Part shown: in pieces, positions 2,451 to 11,334 of the stretch
Layout: every line of letters begins with the position of its first letter
Position numbering within the stretch: the first letter of the stretch is position 1
DNA from: a virus
Taxonomy: Duplodnaviria > Heunggongvirae > Uroviricota > Caudoviricetes
Direction: 5' to 3' (one strand)
Virus record (IMG/VR): IMGVR_UViG_3300029517_000086
DNA: 12,086 bases
Position numbers and translations under genes: made by a program
The notes under the pieces: model-generated
Database searches by the model: none
The model's input: the letters and a program-made list of their open reading frames with translations, nothing else
What the model was told of the DNA's origin: nothing

Positions 2451-2998
2451 GCGTTAGTTTCTCCACAGTCACGACACGCCACGGCGCCCGGAGCTGCACA
2501 CTCGCGGGCGTCATTACTTTCTGAAATGCAAAAAATTTTGTAGACCAGTGCTGCATGCTCCTGCAGCTTCGAAATTGAGAGGTACAGCTCGTCGTTAATT
2601 GCTGTCTTCTCATGCGGTTCCACTACACCGTCTTCAATTGCTGAACGAATCTGTTTTGAATAACTGCCGATCTGTTCAATGACCTCCAGCAGGCGTTGGT
2701 TGATATCGGCGTTGTCCACATCCTCGACATCAGGAAGAGACACAAAGACGCCATTTGCAGACTGCGCCACAGCGTCAGCAATGAAGTGAGTTCCACCAGC
2801 ACGTTGCAAAATCATTGCCCATCCCAGCGGGAAAATCTGATCGCCATCGGCACGAAGGCGGTTAAATAATGCGTTCTCTGTTACATCCAGCCAGTCAGCA
2901 GCTTCAGCGTAACCCCCCGGCAACGCTGCGATAGTTTTTCTGACAGCTTTCACGTACCACTCAGGCTGTTTTTCTACTTTCCAGTGATGCTTACCCAC
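2447..2998 (-). CDS. CII-like phage regulatory protein (YmfL/CP76-type, tentative), 183 aa
   Basis: Second gene of the rightward early operon, directly after the cro-like gene and overlapping its end by 8 nt. GTG start at 2998..2996 is preceded by AGGAGG. The family assignment comes from position and size only. Confidence 0.6.
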
Positions 2999-3251
2999 GG
3001 TTCACCTCCTGTTCCTGTGGTTTAAACCCATTCTGGTTTTGGCTAGATTGAAAACGTGCCGGATAAAGAATCTGCATTTCGCTGACTTCACCCTTAAAAA
3101 AATTGGCTAAACGTTCTGCAAGCTCGATAGATGGAATCTGCTCCAGCCTCTCAATACGACTCAACGTCGCTGGATTGACTTGAACACCCGCAGCAACATG
3201 CTGCAAAGTGAAACCATGCGCCTTACGCACATTTCGTAATAGTGATTGCAT
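2991..3251 (-). CDS. Cro-like HTH (XRE family) transcriptional regulator
   Basis: 86 aa with an HTH core (FTLQHVAAGVQVNPATLSRIE). Divergent from the CI-type repressor across an operator-rich region. GGAGG sits 4 nt upstream of ATG at 3251..3249. Confidence 0.8.
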   Translation of the reverse strand: MQSLLRNVRKAHGFTLQHVAAGVQVNPATLSRIERLEQIPSIELAERLANFFKGEVSEMQILYPARFQSSQNQNGFKPQEQEVNRG

Positions 3252-3348
3252 ATAACCTCCAAATATTGCGCGTTATGCATGTTATTTCACGCAATTATTT
3301 TGCGCAAGTTGATTTGCTTATCACGCAATAAAGAAATGTAATAAACGC
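3252..3348. promoter_or_regulatory. Divergent immunity promoter/operator region (OR-like) between the cro-like and cI-like genes
   Basis: 97-bp AT-rich intergenic region with repeated ATTGCGYG / CACGCAA half-sites in both orientations: about 3265-3280 aatattgcgcgttatg, 3286-3300 atttcacgcaattat, 3300-3312 tttgcgcaagttg, 3322-3336 atcacgcaataaag. Confidence 0.6.
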
Positions 3349-4041
3349 ATGAACATAGGAAACCGAGTCAGACAACTTCGCCAAGCGAAGAACATGAAAA
3401 TCGCCGATCTCGCTGAAGCAATAGGAGTAGATGCGGCGAACATCTCGCGCTTAGAAACGGGTAAGCAAAAACAATTTACCGAACAAACACTGAGTAATAT
3501 TGCCAAGAGCTTAGGTGTTGATATTGCTGATCTCTTTACCTCTGCCCACAAAAGTAATACTGTATATAAAAACAGTAATAATGAGGATGTTGCGCAGGTG
3601 AAGGATGTGTTCCGTATTGAAATGCTGGATATCAGTGCCAGTGCGGGAAATGGCCTTATCCAAGGCGGTGATGTCATTGATGTGATTCATGCCATCGAAT
3701 ACAGAACTGATAATGCTGTATCAATGTTCGGCGGACGACCAGCCAATCACATCAAAGTTATCAACGTTCGTGGGGACAGTATGTGTCCAACCATTGAGCC
3801 AGGAGATCTCATCTTCGTTGATGTCAGCATCAATCAGTTTGATGGTGATGGTATATATGTCTTTGGTTTTGATGACAAAATATACGTTAAAAGACTTCAA
3901 ATGATTCCTGACAAACTGCTGGTGATTTCTGATAACCAGATTTACCGTGAATGGGGAATTACTAGCGAAAACGAACACCGATTCATGGTCTTTGGAAAGG
4001 TCTTAATCAGTCAGTCGCAAACCCTTAAGAGACATAATTAA
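3349..4041 (+). CDS. CI-type prophage repressor: N-terminal XRE-family HTH plus C-terminal S24 (LexA-like) peptidase domain
   Basis: HTH region (IADLAEAIGVDAANISRLETGK). C-terminal domain with a GDSM serine motif (RGDSMCPTIEPGDLIFVD) and a downstream lysine (IYVKRL), typical of autocleaving repressors. Same strand as int, as for lambda cI. Confidence 0.9.
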   Translation: MNIGNRVRQLRQAKNMKIADLAEAIGVDAANISRLETGKQKQFTEQTLSNIAKSLGVDIADLFTSAHKSNTVYKNSNNEDVAQVKDVFRIEMLDISASAGNGLIQGGDVIDVIHAIEYRTDNAVSMFGGRPANHIKVINVRGDSMCPTIEPGDLIFVDVSINQFDGDGIYVFGFDDKIYVKRLQMIPDKLLVISDNQIYREWGITSENEHRFMVFGKVLISQSQTLKRHN

Positions 4042-4060: not shown

Positions 4061-4085
4061 GGCCACCGAAAGGTGGCTTTTTATT
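4061..4085 (+). terminator. Rho-independent terminator downstream of the repressor gene
   Basis: Stem gccacc (4062-4067), loop gaaa, stem ggtggc (4072-4077), then ttttt (4078-4082), 20 nt after the cI-like stop. Confidence 0.7.
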
Positions 4086-4095
4086 ACCTATAAAT

Positions 4096-4146
4096 TTGCA
4101 TACCTCGCAAATATTACTTGCATATCTCGCAATTTAATTTTATCTT
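4096..4146 (+). promoter_or_regulatory. Candidate leftward-operon promoter with tandem operator-like repeats (OL-like)
   Basis: 20-bp imperfect direct repeat: ttgcatacctcgcaaatatt (4096-4115) and ttgcatatctcgcaatttaa (4118-4137). The CTCGCAA core resembles the half-sites in the cI/cro operator region. A possible -35 TTGCAT (4118-4123) and -10 TATCTT (4141-4146) are spaced 17 nt apart. Confidence 0.45.
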
Positions 4147-4420
4147 TTGTTCCAGACCAACTACCGGATTACAACAAAATCTGGTTGCAACACGGTGCAT
4201 GTGTCGTAAGCAGTCAGTAAATGTCAAAAACGAACAGGCAGGACGCCCACGAAGTAGCCGCCTGGGGCATATGAAGTCCAGGATGATTCGTTGAGTCATG
4301 TTGTGCCACCAGGCACTCATGTTAAAGCAGGTGTATGAAATGAAAGTCCAGATTTTAAACAATAACTGTGAAGTCGTTTGGGCGTAAAACATGACCGCGC
4401 GTAGACCAAGGGAGGAAAAA

Positions 4421-4597
4421 GTGGGAATAGTTAGAAATCAAGCAGATATATTGAAAATCAGCTCTGAATTGCTTGGAGTTTTGAAAAGTGAGCTCACCGC
4501 ACATGGCATCGAGCCCACTGACGAAAATTTAAGTTGGGTTTTGTCGATTATTCAACAATCACTCAAGCCCAGCCTCAGCAAACTTTTTATCGAGTAG
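4421..4597 (+). CDS. Small hypothetical protein (about 58 aa)
   Basis: In-frame GTG at 4421 preceded by GGAGG (4411-4415); the ORF track's longer ATG at 4391 lacks an RBS. Sits between the repressor and the recombination module, where lambdoid phages carry small early genes. Confidence 0.45.
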   Translation: MGIVRNQADILKISSELLGVLKSELTAHGIEPTDENLSWVLSIIQQSLKPSLSKLFIE

Positions 4598-4750
4598 TGC
4601 TTCGAACTTATCGTAAAGCTTGCTTATGTCGTCTATCGGGTTTTCTGACGTACTGTAATTTTTATCTGATGTCATGGCAGCAGTCTGATATGCAGTGTGA
4701 GTCTTAACCGATAGTTGGAATAAATAAAGAATTTTTTCTTCTTTGGTCAT
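4559..4750 (-). CDS. Small hypothetical protein (about 63 aa)
   Basis: ATG at 4750..4748 with AAGGAA 6 nt upstream. Its 3' end overlaps the 3' end of the plus-strand small ORF by 39 bp (convergent). Confidence 0.45.
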   Translation of the reverse strand: MTKEEKILYLFQLSVKTHTAYQTAAMTSDKNYSTSENPIDDISKLYDKFEALLDKKFAEAGLE

Positions 4751-5004
4751 AACTATTTCCTTCTTGGCTATATGAAAACACCAAGATACCACCGAGCCTG
4801 AAGTGGTGAAAAGACAGGCACATAACAGCTAAGTATTTTCAACCAGAGAGAATCCTTAGCGTTGTGGTGAATGCGGCTCAGCGCACGCGGGTTAAGGTTG
4901 AGGCTGACAGTCGACCTTCTGTGGATACCCACCCGTCTGGTGTGCAACCTTCGCCAGGCACCGGGAGGCACCCGGCACCACAACTTTATGCTGTGTGTAG
5001 TCTT

Positions 5005-5051
5005 GACGGTACCAGTTTGTACCCTTGCTTCCGGCTGGTACCGTCCTTTTT
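5005..5051 (+). terminator. Strong rho-independent terminator at the end of a GC-rich non-coding stretch
   Basis: Perfect 11-bp inverted repeat gacggtaccag (5005-5015) / ctggtaccgtc (5035-5045) around a 19-nt loop, followed by c-ttttt (5046-5051). The minus-strand reading has no T-run. Confidence 0.65.
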
Positions 5052-5269
5052 ACAAAACAGAGAAGAGCATCACCGGACGACGGGCTCATAACCCAATCCA
5101 TCCAGGCGGCTGCCACCGCAGGTGTTCTTCACTGTTTTGTGGAGAAACTAACCGCCCCTACGGGGGCATTCATGGAAATGTAATTGACTCGACTCAATAA
5201 TCGCCGGACGGTGAGGGCTTCCTTTTACCCGAATTCAGCGCGGTGCAGCGCATATACGTGGAGAACAAA

Positions 5270-7302: not shown

Positions 7303-7785
7303 TTGATAAAAAATATGATAATCAATCAACTCAAAATCACGTATAACGACGATATTTTATCTGCACTTTCAGGAAAAGTGTTTCATGTTACTACTGCAGC
7401 TAATATGCTCCTTATAAAACAATCTGGAGCTTTGGTTCCAAATTCGGAATTATTGCAATTTTCAAGATTTGGAAATACATCTAATGGTTTTTTTAGGCAG
7501 CGCAATTGCGTGTCTTTTTTCGACTATAGATGCTATGGGACTAGATTCTGGAAAGAGCATGCTTATAAATGTTTTCCAACTCAGATCCTTAAACGCGAAC
7601 AAGGTGATAAGATTTCAATACTGTTTCTTCACGAAAGCAAGTTCGAGAAACTGATTCCATGGACTTCTTGGAAAGAAGAAAAAGCATGGGGCGAGAGGGT
7701 TGTCCCGTATGTTGAGACTGGATATAAAGGCATTGTTTCCCTAAGCGATATTACCGAAGAATTAGTTGTTGAGTTTGACTGCTAG
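7303..7785 (+). CDS. Hypothetical protein (156-160 aa), AT-rich cargo gene between int and the host junction
   Basis: Open frame of protein-like composition, no recognisable motif. Start is uncertain (TTG at 7303 or ATG at 7315), both with weak RBS. AT-rich by eye compared with the phage core. Confidence 0.5.
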   Translation: MIKNMIINQLKITYNDDILSALSGKVFHVTTAANMLLIKQSGALVPNSELLQFSRFGNTSNGFFRQRNCVSFFDYRCYGTRFWKEHAYKCFPTQILKREQGDKISILFLHESKFEKLIPWTSWKEEKAWGERVVPYVETGYKGIVSLSDITEELVVEFDC

Positions 7786-8211: not shown

Positions 8212-11200
8212 TCAGAGGTGTTCGAACCTAGCCACCACAGCACCTTCAATTTCTAGCACTTGATTCCAGGTCGTGGTCACCGAGCCAGTCAGAGGATCTT
8301 GACTGTCTGTCTGCCATGAGGAGTTGAAAAGCAGGCCGTCAGGATCGCTCTGCAGGTGAAGGTTGCCGAAGATACTGTTCCGGACGAGCAGGGAATAACA
8401 TCTCTCAGAAGCAAACTCCTGATAGATTCCACAGCCGTTGATTCTGATTGGCATCAGGCCTCCCGGACGCGACGACCTGTCCAGCGTGATCCCCAGTTCC
8501 GCATGCCTGTCCGCGTGGTAAATCAGTTCACGCAGGTCACTCCCTAGACGGGTGCCGAAAAATATAAGCGTAGAGTCGTCATTATCGACGGTCATCTCCC
8601 GTAAATGCTTCAGCAGTCCCTTCACGTCGCGAACGATTTCGGTCCGGAGAGGCTGCAACTGACTCAGGCCTCGGTAAACATCACGAAGCAGAGAATATTT
8701 GACGTCAGAAAGCGATGTCAGATCACCGTAGACATTGCTGTTGATCCCCCGAGCAATGATATTTTTAGGCATGGTTCCTCGAACCGACCTAGCTGTCCAT
8801 GGTATCTCCCCGTTCTCAGAGTTGCTGTAAGAAAAACGGGAAAGCAGTGCATCCTGAGCAAGCATTTCGGGCAGTTCGTGGGTCAGAGTCAGATCGGTTT
8901 TTTTCAGCCGTTCTGTATCAATCTCTGCGTTAAGAAGTTCATCATGCAGGCACTGGCTGAAAGCCAGAATATAGGCATCGAGAGTTTTATTGAAAGAAAT
9001 AATTTTCGCTTTAAAAACCATCTCAGACATTAAATATCCGTCTGGGGAACTGTCTTCACGACGTTTCATCCCATGAAGCTGATTTATAATTTGTTCCTTT
9101 CTGGAATACGTGAAGAGATTGTCATTCAGAGCATCCTGCACGCGTCGGCTGACAGGCTGCGGCCCAGCGGAAAGATAAAAAGCAATATCAGCGTAACTGC
9201 CGTACAGATTCCTTACATCTTCATAGGTTCCCATATAAATGCGACCGGTTATAGTTTCGGTTTCATTAAAGGCTGAAAAGGTTTTTATGAGGCCGGACAG
9301 CGCTTCGTACCAGCCGTTCTCATGACGATTGTTCCGGTATTCCAGCCTGATGATGCTGTCAATAATATCAGTGGCTGACTTAAATGAAGGTGTCATGCGA
9401 TCGTGTGCACCAGTAGGATAGACAAGCTCTGAATTCAGGAGTCGCTTAACAACGCTTTTAAGGGGGACATTCTTTTTCTGCCTGATATGAGAAAGAATAT
9501 AGCTTGCAGTCAACAAACGCACGTCAGCTAGGGCGTTATAAAATACCGTGTTCAGCGTCTTATTTTCTGAATATTCATTACCTCGCAGTACAGCCTGCCA
9601 GTCATGTCCTTCAGAAGTCTGCGTTAATAAGGCTGGTGTGATGAAAAAACTGTGCCAGCGGTACTGGTCAAAATGCTCTTCAAAGTTATTCCGGCCAAAC
9701 CAGAGCAACAGCATATCTGAGCTGTGTTCTGAGGCGAAACGGTCATCTTTCATGACTGCTGTTATGACTGTCTGAGCAGTGTAGAAAAGATGAGACAGCA
9801 GGCAAGCCGGGTCATTATCAGACCGTTCCCCGTTACGGTTATGAATACGTCGCCACATGTACCAGCTTTCCCATTCACCGATAAAATCTTTAACAAGCTC
9901 CCGGTGACGCAGCTCCTGGCCAACCGTCAGATTTTCTCCATACCCCGTTTTCCAGTCTATCAGCGCATGCCAGACGTGGAAAAGAGACTGAATATATTGC
10001 TGAAAATCGCCCAGCTGGCAGCTGTCGGCATCACGATACACCGAGAATGGGATGGTTAATACATTACGAAAATATTCCCCTGTGGTTTCCAAAGATTTTA
10101 CAGTAACGTGACTGAATGAGTAAAAGTCTCTATGGAATGACTGGCTGAATGTCACCATAAATCCTGTATCACTACATTCATCAATATAGTTACCGTCAGC
10201 ATACCGGAAACTTTTTTTCAACGTTGTGTAGGTGTCCACCAGCCTGTCTGTTGCACTGATGAAGGAACTAATATTTCTGTCTTCCAGAGCATCGTAGGCC
10301 TCGCCATAAAAATCACGGGTAATGTAGCGGTATTCTTTCCAGTTTTTTTTAAAACCTCTGATAAAGCATCGCCTGAACAAAAACGGCCACCAACAGGGAA
10401 AAATCACATCCGTAGATGCGAGCAGAGTTATTGTATCCTGCTTACGACCCAAGGATGGGAGTAAAATTATTTTTCCTACGCTGTTATTAACTGGTCGCAG
10501 AAATCGTAACAGAAAATTAAATAACCGCATCCGGACATCGGTAATATCTTTCCCCTCACCTAAATGATGAGGTAACAAATTCATATTCTCTTCACCTGAA
10601 ACATACCAGCGGAGGACCTCAATCCCATTGATGTAATTTTTATCGATATAATTCCCTGGGTGCTGAAGCCATGAGTTTATCCGCGAATGAAGAATGAAAT
10701 TTTCGACAATCTCTGACTGAAAATATTTTAACATAAGGCGGTCGCGTTTTTTATCGTCAAGAATATTCAGGCTTGAAATAAAAAACCATATAGATAGCAC
10801 GATGTTGAACAGCATCCAGATTAAGGCTGTAATGGCAAAAGCGGTCGTCCGGTATTTATCGCCGGCAGATGAAAATAGCCCACCAATCACTATAAATGCA
10901 GCCAGTGACAGCCCGCTGAGCCCGGCAAACATGTAACCCGAATGCAACTGATAGGCAGACTGAATATGTATGCGGGACGATTTTTTCTGAAAAAGCACGC
11001 TGATAAGGCCCACAACCAGCGGAAAAACGATCCCGATAATCGTCAGCTGAGCGCCCAGCAGGTTTGACATCCATGCCGGCAGCTCCGTAACACCTTTCAG
11101 ATAGGAAGCGGCAAAAGAATGAAATTCTGGACGAAAATATTCCGCAACAATGACTGCACCTACTGCCGTTGCCCAGAGCAACAACATGGCCTTCAGATAG

Positions 11201-11334
11201 TGCGTGGAGCAGTAAACCTGCGCTCTCTCAAGCAGACTCCAGCGATGTTTTTTATACACCGAATTACCTTTAAGGTTCCGTTTGAGATCGGCTCTGACTT
11301 TAGCTGAAAGGCGTGTAAAGAATATGCCAGACAT
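8212..11334 (-). CDS. Large membrane-anchored protein of unknown function (1040 aa): four predicted N-terminal TM helices plus a roughly 850-aa soluble domain
   Basis: Single uninterrupted 3.1-kb ORF. ATG at 11334..11332 with AGGAG 4 nt upstream. Hydrophobic helices at about residues 48-66, 92-115, 134-155 and 164-188. No nucleotide-binding, nuclease or other motif recognised by eye. Sits in the int-to-att cargo slot. Confidence 0.85.
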   Translation of the reverse strand: MSGIFFTRLSAKVRADLKRNLKGNSVYKKHRWSLLERAQVYCSTHYLKAMLLLWATAVGAVIVAEYFRPEFHSFAASYLKGVTELPAWMSNLLGAQLTIIGIVFPLVVGLISVLFQKKSSRIHIQSAYQLHSGYMFAGLSGLSLAAFIVIGGLFSSAGDKYRTTAFAITALIWMLFNIVLSIWFFISSLNILDDKKRDRLMLKYFQSEIVENFILHSRINSWLQHPGNYIDKNYINGIEVLRWYVSGEENMNLLPHHLGEGKDITDVRMRLFNFLLRFLRPVNNSVGKIILLPSLGRKQDTITLLASTDVIFPCWWPFLFRRCFIRGFKKNWKEYRYITRDFYGEAYDALEDRNISSFISATDRLVDTYTTLKKSFRYADGNYIDECSDTGFMVTFSQSFHRDFYSFSHVTVKSLETTGEYFRNVLTIPFSVYRDADSCQLGDFQQYIQSLFHVWHALIDWKTGYGENLTVGQELRHRELVKDFIGEWESWYMWRRIHNRNGERSDNDPACLLSHLFYTAQTVITAVMKDDRFASEHSSDMLLLWFGRNNFEEHFDQYRWHSFFITPALLTQTSEGHDWQAVLRGNEYSENKTLNTVFYNALADVRLLTASYILSHIRQKKNVPLKSVVKRLLNSELVYPTGAHDRMTPSFKSATDIIDSIIRLEYRNNRHENGWYEALSGLIKTFSAFNETETITGRIYMGTYEDVRNLYGSYADIAFYLSAGPQPVSRRVQDALNDNLFTYSRKEQIINQLHGMKRREDSSPDGYLMSEMVFKAKIISFNKTLDAYILAFSQCLHDELLNAEIDTERLKKTDLTLTHELPEMLAQDALLSRFSYSNSENGEIPWTARSVRGTMPKNIIARGINSNVYGDLTSLSDVKYSLLRDVYRGLSQLQPLRTEIVRDVKGLLKHLREMTVDNDDSTLIFFGTRLGSDLRELIYHADRHAELGITLDRSSRPGGLMPIRINGCGIYQEFASERCYSLLVRNSIFGNLHLQSDPDGLLFNSSWQTDSQDPLTGSVTTTWNQVLEIEGAVVARFEHL

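Follow-up and report, generated by a model that had tools for sequence, protein, structure and literature searches.

A conserved convergent pair of overlapping small genes next to PL in SfII/SfV/e14-type lambdoid prophages as a possible excludon-type switch

Two small open reading frames (ORFs) that run towards each other and share their 3′ ends on opposite strands raise the question of whether both are genes at all, and, if they are, whether the shared DNA ties the expression of one to that of the other. Convergent overlaps this long seldom occur in bacteria and often turn out to be errors of annotation. The pair considered here occupies positions 4421-4750 of a 12,086-nucleotide stretch of viral DNA (the window), which represents an E. 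coli prophage of the SfII/SfV/e14 lambdoid type: its sequence matches the chromosome of strain AMSHJX01 with 100% identity and Shigella phage SfII with 98.9%. Within the window, 113 ORFs of at least 30 aa occur, and therefore a pair of such size is by itself not above chance, and a comparative test was needed.

The plus gene extends from a GTG start at 4421 to a TAG stop ending at 4597 (58 aa), and the minus gene from an ATG at 4750 to a stop at 4559 (63 aa; WP_000159356.1, SfII_36), so that their 3′ ends overlap tail to tail by 39 bp (4559-4597); the original prediction, which had described ORFs of about 58 and 63 aa with an overlap of this length, was exact in its coordinates. The good ribosome-binding site that it claimed for each ORF was also found: the GTG is preceded, at a distance of 5 nt, by the Shine-Dalgarno sequence (SD) AAGGGAGG (4408-4415, +), and the ATG at 4750 by AAGGAAA (4762-4756, -). 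Longer forms can be read from an ATG at 4391 for the plus gene (68 aa) and from a GTG at 4792 for the minus gene (77 aa). The ATG at 4391, occurring only in the E. coli lineage and lacking an SD, is probably not a start, and the 58-aa call was preferred because every lineage has both a start codon at 4421 and an SD before it: four homologs have ATG instead of GTG at the same position, and SD-like purine runs lie in the same place upstream in all eight diverged loci. Only the minus gene is annotated, the plus gene having no annotation from PGAP/RefSeq or in the SfII record.

Both frames are open in all 27 distinct versions of the module. To look for coding constraint, the module DNA was aligned from eight diverged loci, and variable sites were counted by codon position in seven of them (L014 was left out). 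In the part that belongs to the plus gene only (4421-4558), plus-frame positions 1, 2 and 3 were variable at 22, 12 and 36 of 46 sites, and in the part that belongs to the minus gene only (4598-4750), minus-frame positions 1, 2 and 3 were variable at 18, 11 and 39 of 51 sites; the third-position periodicity thus changes strand at the overlap. Across 36 sequence pairs analysed by the Nei-Gojobori method, pN/pS outside the overlap was 0.235 for the plus gene in its own frame versus 1.07 in the antisense control frame, and 0.196 versus 0.86 for the minus gene. Inside the 39-bp overlap, pS fell to 0.085 in the plus frame and 0.20 in the minus frame, versus 0.5-0.65 over most of both genes, a collapse of the kind that dual coding predicts. 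The phase of the overlap places codon position 2 opposite codon position 2, and this position is invariant in 13 of the 13 codons. Additionally, both proteins give full-length profile matches, the plus protein to phrog_15476 (E 7.4e-50, 1-68/68) and the minus protein to phrog_2605 (E 1.4e-33, 1-63/69). This per-frame substitution check, of the dN/dS type, had been set beforehand, and coding-type conservation was found on both strands and not on one. Comparative analysis of the DNA thus shows both ORFs to be protein-coding genes under purifying selection, and the earlier reservation that either one may be non-coding is refuted by the pN/pS values in both frames.

The two genes also travel together. 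Homologs of each protein, from 97% down to about 64% identity, were found in E. coli, Kluyvera, Atlantibacter, Klebsiella and metagenomes, and in the more than 80 loci examined both genes are present, convergent and overlapping, down to about 40% amino acid identity. All 71 loci with a minus-gene homolog, 53 of which are IMG/VR viral contigs, also carry the plus gene in convergent, overlapping orientation; conversely, the 49 retrieved viral contigs with the plus gene all carry the minus gene. A scan of more distant relatives, with minus-gene identities of 37-66%, returned both genes in 10 of 10 loci, and the arrangement is kept in Edwardsiella phage EPP-1, where both proteins are about 40% identical to those of the window, and in further viral contigs at 44-51% identity. 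The two proteins diverge roughly in step, with plus/minus identities of 83/92, 81/81, 64/78, 53/64 and 41/40% in successive relatives. The length of the overlap varies among relatives (15, 24, 27, 33, 39 or 45 bp) in multiples of three, with the sole exception of a 46-bp frameshift variant, and the arrangement persists even where the plus protein has 92-201 aa and the 58-aa sequence forms only its C-terminal domain. In that variant (the IMG/VR loci L067 and L068; P0019 and P0022), a natural 1-nt frameshift alters the minus C-terminus inside the overlap, the plus protein is still 98% identical, and the copy may be a decaying one.

With regard to its spread, 63 of 5426 complete E. coli genomes carry the module, and in all 12 sampled rows of those 63 no more than one annotated gene lies under the match; a scan of species-representative genomes returned a Kluyvera locus only, and a collection scan with P0024 gave no match. 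We hold with high confidence that both ORFs are genes and form a conserved linked pair. Strict pairing over such deep divergence suggests that the two products may act on each other or in the same process, and the co-occurrence could partly reflect the physical linkage of overlapping genes.

The position of the pair in the prophage is equally constant. In the window, a cro-like gene (2991-3251, -) is followed by the gene of a cI-type repressor (3349-4041, +) directly upstream of the PL region, with an intrinsic terminator at 4061-4078 (+), then by the convergent pair on both strands (4421-4750), the STnc100/PasD-like RNA region (4831-5054, +) at the right flank of the slot, and further 3′ by yfdR, xisE and intE on the plus strand. 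In every locus with an available upstream flank whose genes were read or compared with Pfam, the pair lies directly 3′ of the gene for a cI-type repressor with HTH and S24 domains, which has the orientation of the plus gene; different loci carry different alleles of this repressor. The pair is a two-gene cassette of SfII/SfV/e14-type lambdoid prophages, and its slot is an accessory site between the cI repressor gene and the early-left region. At the far end of the prophage, just past the integrase gene and in the position of lit in e14, lies a 1040-aa ORF (8212-11334, -), adjoined by a 160-aa ORF (7303-7785, +); neither has a Pfam or PADLOC match, and the larger is a candidate defence or accessory gene, a large cargo gene at the prophage end.

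Just past the cI terminator, two 15-bp OL operators of the sequence TTGCATAyCTCGCAA (4096-4110 and 4118-4132, +) overlap PL, of which the -35 box TTGCAT (4118-4123) and the -10 box TATCTT (4141-4146) are separated by a 17-nt spacer on the plus strand. The operators belong to a repeat family (D2) and share TTGC-N7-GCAA with the OR copy at 3314-3328. In other loci, the PL position holds equivalent promoters whose operators differ in sequence, and a consensus scan calls these promoters in L010 and L006. The plus gene thereby lies downstream of, and co-oriented with, a predicted promoter overlapped by operators that match OR, as expected of a PL-proximal early-left gene.

Between PL and the plus gene, a conserved leader of about 60 nt (4229-4290, +) carries a 5-bp hairpin (4261-4265 paired with 4278-4282) supported by covariation, in that 98% of cells are paired, three of the five pairs are changed on both sides and none of 500 shuffles was as good; its loop is 12 nt long (GGCRTAYGAA...), and the single-stranded invariant part reads GAACAGGCAGGACGCCCACGAAGTAGCCGCC. 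In 34 distinct sequences, the leader directly follows PL promoters that belong to different immunity types, and it also lies upstream of ymfJ in the e14 element of K-12; it has no match in Rfam, and could be a nut/put-like or processing site. A 92-aa minus-strand ORF across this region (4114-4392) was rejected as a gene, as it has no family matches, covers the conserved leader and PL and contains a terminator-like site, and a minus-strand hairpin at 4250-4234 was too weak (three G-C and four G-U pairs) to be taken as the end of a minus transcript.

The distance from the leader to the start of the plus gene is about 30 nt in most loci, and the window has about 120 nt extra; here 75 nt and a 22-codon remnant ORF stand between PL and the plus gene. 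The remnant (MLKQVYEMKVQILNNNCEVVWA, 4319-4387, +) comes from the 5′ end of SfV orf33, shares the reading frame of the plus gene and has its TAA stop 3 nt ahead of the ATG at 4391. It is a scar that marks the left recombination junction of the cassette and shows most of orf33 to have been replaced. A tblastn match of SfV orf33 to 4319-4561 was discarded as evidence of homology to the plus gene, being an artefact of 21 identical N-terminal residues and read-through of a stop.

On the other side, a putative sigma-70 promoter for the minus gene lies at 4812-4783 (-), with TTTTCA (4812-4807), an 18-nt spacer and the extended -10 TGg-TATCTT (4791-4783), within the conserved element CCTGTCTTTTCACCACTTCAGGCTCGGTGGTAT (4783-4830, -). 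Across lineages the element before the minus gene reads CCTGTCTTTTCACCACTTCAGGCTCGGTGGTATCTT and is kept in 8 of 8 diverged loci, and the same element precedes unrelated minus-strand cassette genes in e14 (L073, before ymfI), L004, L008 and L005. We infer that 4783-4812 may serve as a minus-gene promoter facing PL, one that has 8 of 12 matches to the consensus hexamers, falls below the threshold of the scan and was not called by it. The spacer of the element is invariant and can form a 4-5 bp hairpin without covariation, and therefore the element may do something besides, or other than, promoting transcription: it may be a site for a regulator, drive the STnc100-like RNA as a divergent promoter, or anchor recombination during the exchange of cassettes.

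Terminator prediction found none between the two genes on either strand. The first terminator on the plus strand after PL is an 11-bp hairpin (5005-5015 paired with 5035-5045) followed by CUUUUU (5005-5051), at the 3′ end of the STnc100-like RNA. The match to STnc100 at 4831-5054 (+) is near threshold (44.7 bits versus a gathering score of 47, E 3.8e-7); STnc100 is a prophage sRNA family that has been related to PasD in a 2026 preprint. PGAP places a "frameshifted hypothetical protein" at 4864-5183 that covers this RNA and corresponds to the ymfH region of e14, and 4831-5054 is probably an RNA gene rather than a pseudogene. Since the coding sequences themselves overlap and no terminator was predicted between them, the transcripts, if both are made, are expected to overlap far beyond 39 bp.

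The slot is widespread and holds other pairs of the same design. Its flanks, from the PL leader to the STnc100-like RNA, match in 2819 of 5426 complete E. coli genomes. In e14, the slot between the cI-like repressor gene ymfK and ymfH/xisE is filled, like that of the window, by a pair, ymfJ/ymfI; the flanks are homologous to those of the window (85% for the leader, 89% for the right flank with the 5′ region of the minus gene), and the two genes are also convergent, with a 3′ overlap of 63 bp, whereas the proteins differ, YmfJ and YmfI having 102 and 113 aa, being unrelated by eye to those of the window, and YmfI having its own NCBIfam model. Further same-slot pairs are SfV orf33 with an unannotated 81-aa gene (overlap about 80 bp), a 68-aa gene of phage Kati with an ECs1072-family gene (29 bp), two 77-aa genes in L077 (23 bp) and genes of 108 and 69 aa in L008 (4 bp); in some loci, two convergent cassettes are stacked. 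The 81-aa gene lies on the minus strand opposite orf33, at about 1812-2054 in SfV (L003) and at 2860-3105 in L004, and the SfV record marks a "putative terminator" where this gene lies and leaves the gene itself unannotated. This repeated design among the occupants of the slot supports the view that the convergent layout is functional rather than accidental.

Based on these findings, we propose, as the reading we favour by a modest margin over doubt, that the pair may be an excludon-type switch governed indirectly by cI and PL, a proposal drawn from sequence features and from analogy. The plus gene would be the first intact gene of the cI-repressed PL transcript, and therefore is expected to stay off in the lysogen and to come on upon induction. 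The minus gene would be driven by its own promoter at 4783-4812, which would be tied to no immunity type and would fire towards PL. Transcription from PL would cross the whole minus gene together with its promoter, and transcription on the minus strand would cross the whole plus gene. With PL held off by cI, the minus gene would be on and its transcript would be antisense to any leaky plus mRNA; upon cleavage of cI, strong transcription from PL would turn the plus gene on, and the minus gene would be silenced through transcriptional interference and the formation of a sense-antisense duplex. The original prediction had suggested that convergent transcription could give mutual antisense regulation, and this idea fits the anatomy, with PL upstream, a putative minus promoter facing it, no terminator predicted between the genes and an analogue in e14; it stands as a plausible part of the proposed switch.

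The e14 pair would lend support by analogy. In MG1655, ymfI-ymfJ belongs to the excludome as a convergent pair, having been found in 50% or more of 58 RNA-seq samples (PMC12288877). Late in the SOS response, ymfJ, the gene on the PL side, is induced along with other e14 genes under cI control, with a log2 fold change of 4.05-4.83, versus only 1.0-2.0 for ymfI (PMC11002266). As evidence for a switch in the window this is a positional analogy with unrelated proteins. PMC5001618 sets out the concept that a repressor can relieve transcriptional interference between convergent promoters.

The proposed switch can be set beside several known arrangements, each of which it resembles in part. Excludons, known from Listeria, S. 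aureus and E. coli, are convergent or divergent genes whose transcripts overlap and whose expression is mutually exclusive; like them, the window pair consists of opposite-strand neighbours (4421-4597, + and 4559-4750, -) for which either/or expression is predicted, but here the coding sequences themselves overlap, and not untranslated regions alone. In the immunity region of phage lambda, the oop RNA is a convergent transcript over the 3′ end of the regulatory gene cII, which it down-regulates in an RNase III-dependent manner; oop, however, is a short non-coding RNA to the right of cro, whereas both partners in the window encode conserved proteins and lie downstream of cI. In coliphages 186 and P2, promoters stand face to face and the strong lytic one interferes with the weaker opposing one, an interference that is relieved by a repressor bound at the lytic promoter. 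In 186, the opposing promoter drives the repressor gene and the transcripts overlap at their 5′ ends, whereas in the window it would drive an accessory gene and the overlap is at the 3′ ends.

The strongest rival to the proposed switch, which we consider unlikely, is that the pair reflects compact packing only, namely two independent accessory genes (morons) with unrelated proteins and a chance 3′ overlap, no effect of one on the other, and co-occurrence by linkage. Phage genomes are compact, the length of the overlap is not fixed (15-46 bp), and no function linking both proteins was found, all of which agree with packing. It sits less well with a pairing that is kept down to about 40% identity and across plus-gene architectures from a protein of 58 aa to proteins of 92-201 aa that bear further N-terminal domains, with the recurrence of convergent overlap in unrelated cassettes of the same slot (63 bp in e14, 29 in Kati, about 80 in orf33/81-aa and 23 in L077), or with the lack of a predicted terminator between the genes, by which overlapping transcripts are expected if both genes are transcribed.

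A second rival, somewhat less probable still, is that the pair is a toxin-antitoxin-like addiction or abortive-infection system, one product being toxic and the other, a protein or an antisense transcript, neutralising it. Such a reading draws on strict two-gene linkage, on the fact that the slot can hold a SieB exclusion gene, and on the layout, as 3′-end overlap is that of the txpA/RatA and bsrG/SR4 type I systems of B. subtilis, which are prophage-borne and convergent, with a small membrane peptide as toxin and a non-coding RNA as antitoxin. The window pair shares the 3′ overlap with these systems, but has neither a membrane peptide nor a non-coding partner: both partners are coding, both proteins are mildly acidic, and the longest uncharged stretch measures about 12 aa in the plus and about 9 aa in the minus protein, neither protein being hydrophobic over a length sufficient for a membrane helix. 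In AlphaFold2 models, the plus protein (pLDDT 68) and the minus protein (pLDDT 76.5) are each predicted as a two-helix hairpin of soluble type. A type II system is also not indicated, the layout being convergent, unlike type II operons, and no toxin or antitoxin domain being found in Pfam, NCBIfam or PADLOC.

Searches of both proteins against Pfam, NCBIfam, PADLOC and PDB sequence profiles gave no matches, that against the SieB family (PF14163) in Pfam included, and in one locus (L075) a true SieB gene adjoins the pair. With Foldseek against the PDB, the minus model had 0 matches and the plus model only those with E > 1 typical of helical hairpins, two-helix models being too simple for fold assignment. 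In the literature, no mention was found of WP_000159356 or of either PHROG identifier.

The weakest rival, that only the annotated minus gene is real and the plus ORF only reflects constraint that acts on the 3′ UTR or the antisense strand of the minus transcript, has in its favour that PGAP and the SfII record annotate the minus gene only, and is highly improbable given the third-position variability of the plus frame with its pN/pS far below that of the antisense frame (0.235 versus 1.07), the conserved plus start codon and SD, the occurrence of the plus domain as the C-terminus of longer called proteins and the match of the plus protein to phrog_15476 (E 7e-50).

Returning to the excludon-type switch, what the two proteins might do is a more speculative matter. 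The two small acidic helical-hairpin proteins may be matched to each other; the minus protein, for instance, could be an accessory or exclusion factor expressed in the lysogen, with the plus protein as its antagonist in the lytic phase. Some relatives have the plus domain joined to a domain that resembles the first PL gene of phage Kati, others to a C4 zinc finger of ClpX type, as in one metagenomic relative (P0035). Just upstream of the plus gene, E. coli strain G5 has a ClpX-zinc-finger ORF that stands by itself, and some loci (L004, 1827-2030, +) have a ClpX-type C4 zinc-finger ORF between the PL leader and the plus gene. These zinc-finger neighbours and fusions hint at a link to ClpX-dependent proteolysis.

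At its widest, the proposal would extend to the slot as a whole, which might be an exchangeable array of convergent pair cassettes. The minus genes would share a portable promoter and be made lysogeny-specific through cI-relieved interference, without an operator of their own; the plus partners would be cognate lytic-phase antidotes or antagonists, whether of defence with self-immunity or of toxin with antidote; and the dual-coding overlap would lock the partners together during exchange. Taken jointly, these elements make a doubtful conjecture.

In conclusion, the pair is a well-supported instance in which the two strands of one piece of DNA each encode a conserved protein, and the analysis recovers the plus gene, which had been missed by RefSeq. 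The pair is new, and convergent overlapping prophage pairs of the excludon type are already known as such. The practical importance is modest for now. The uncharacterised ymfJ/ymfI genes of K-12 belong, together with this pair, to a wider class of convergent pair cassettes that are placed directly against PL. If the proposed switch is true, such a placement would be a simple way to make any accessory gene of a prophage lysogeny-specific and to turn it off at induction.
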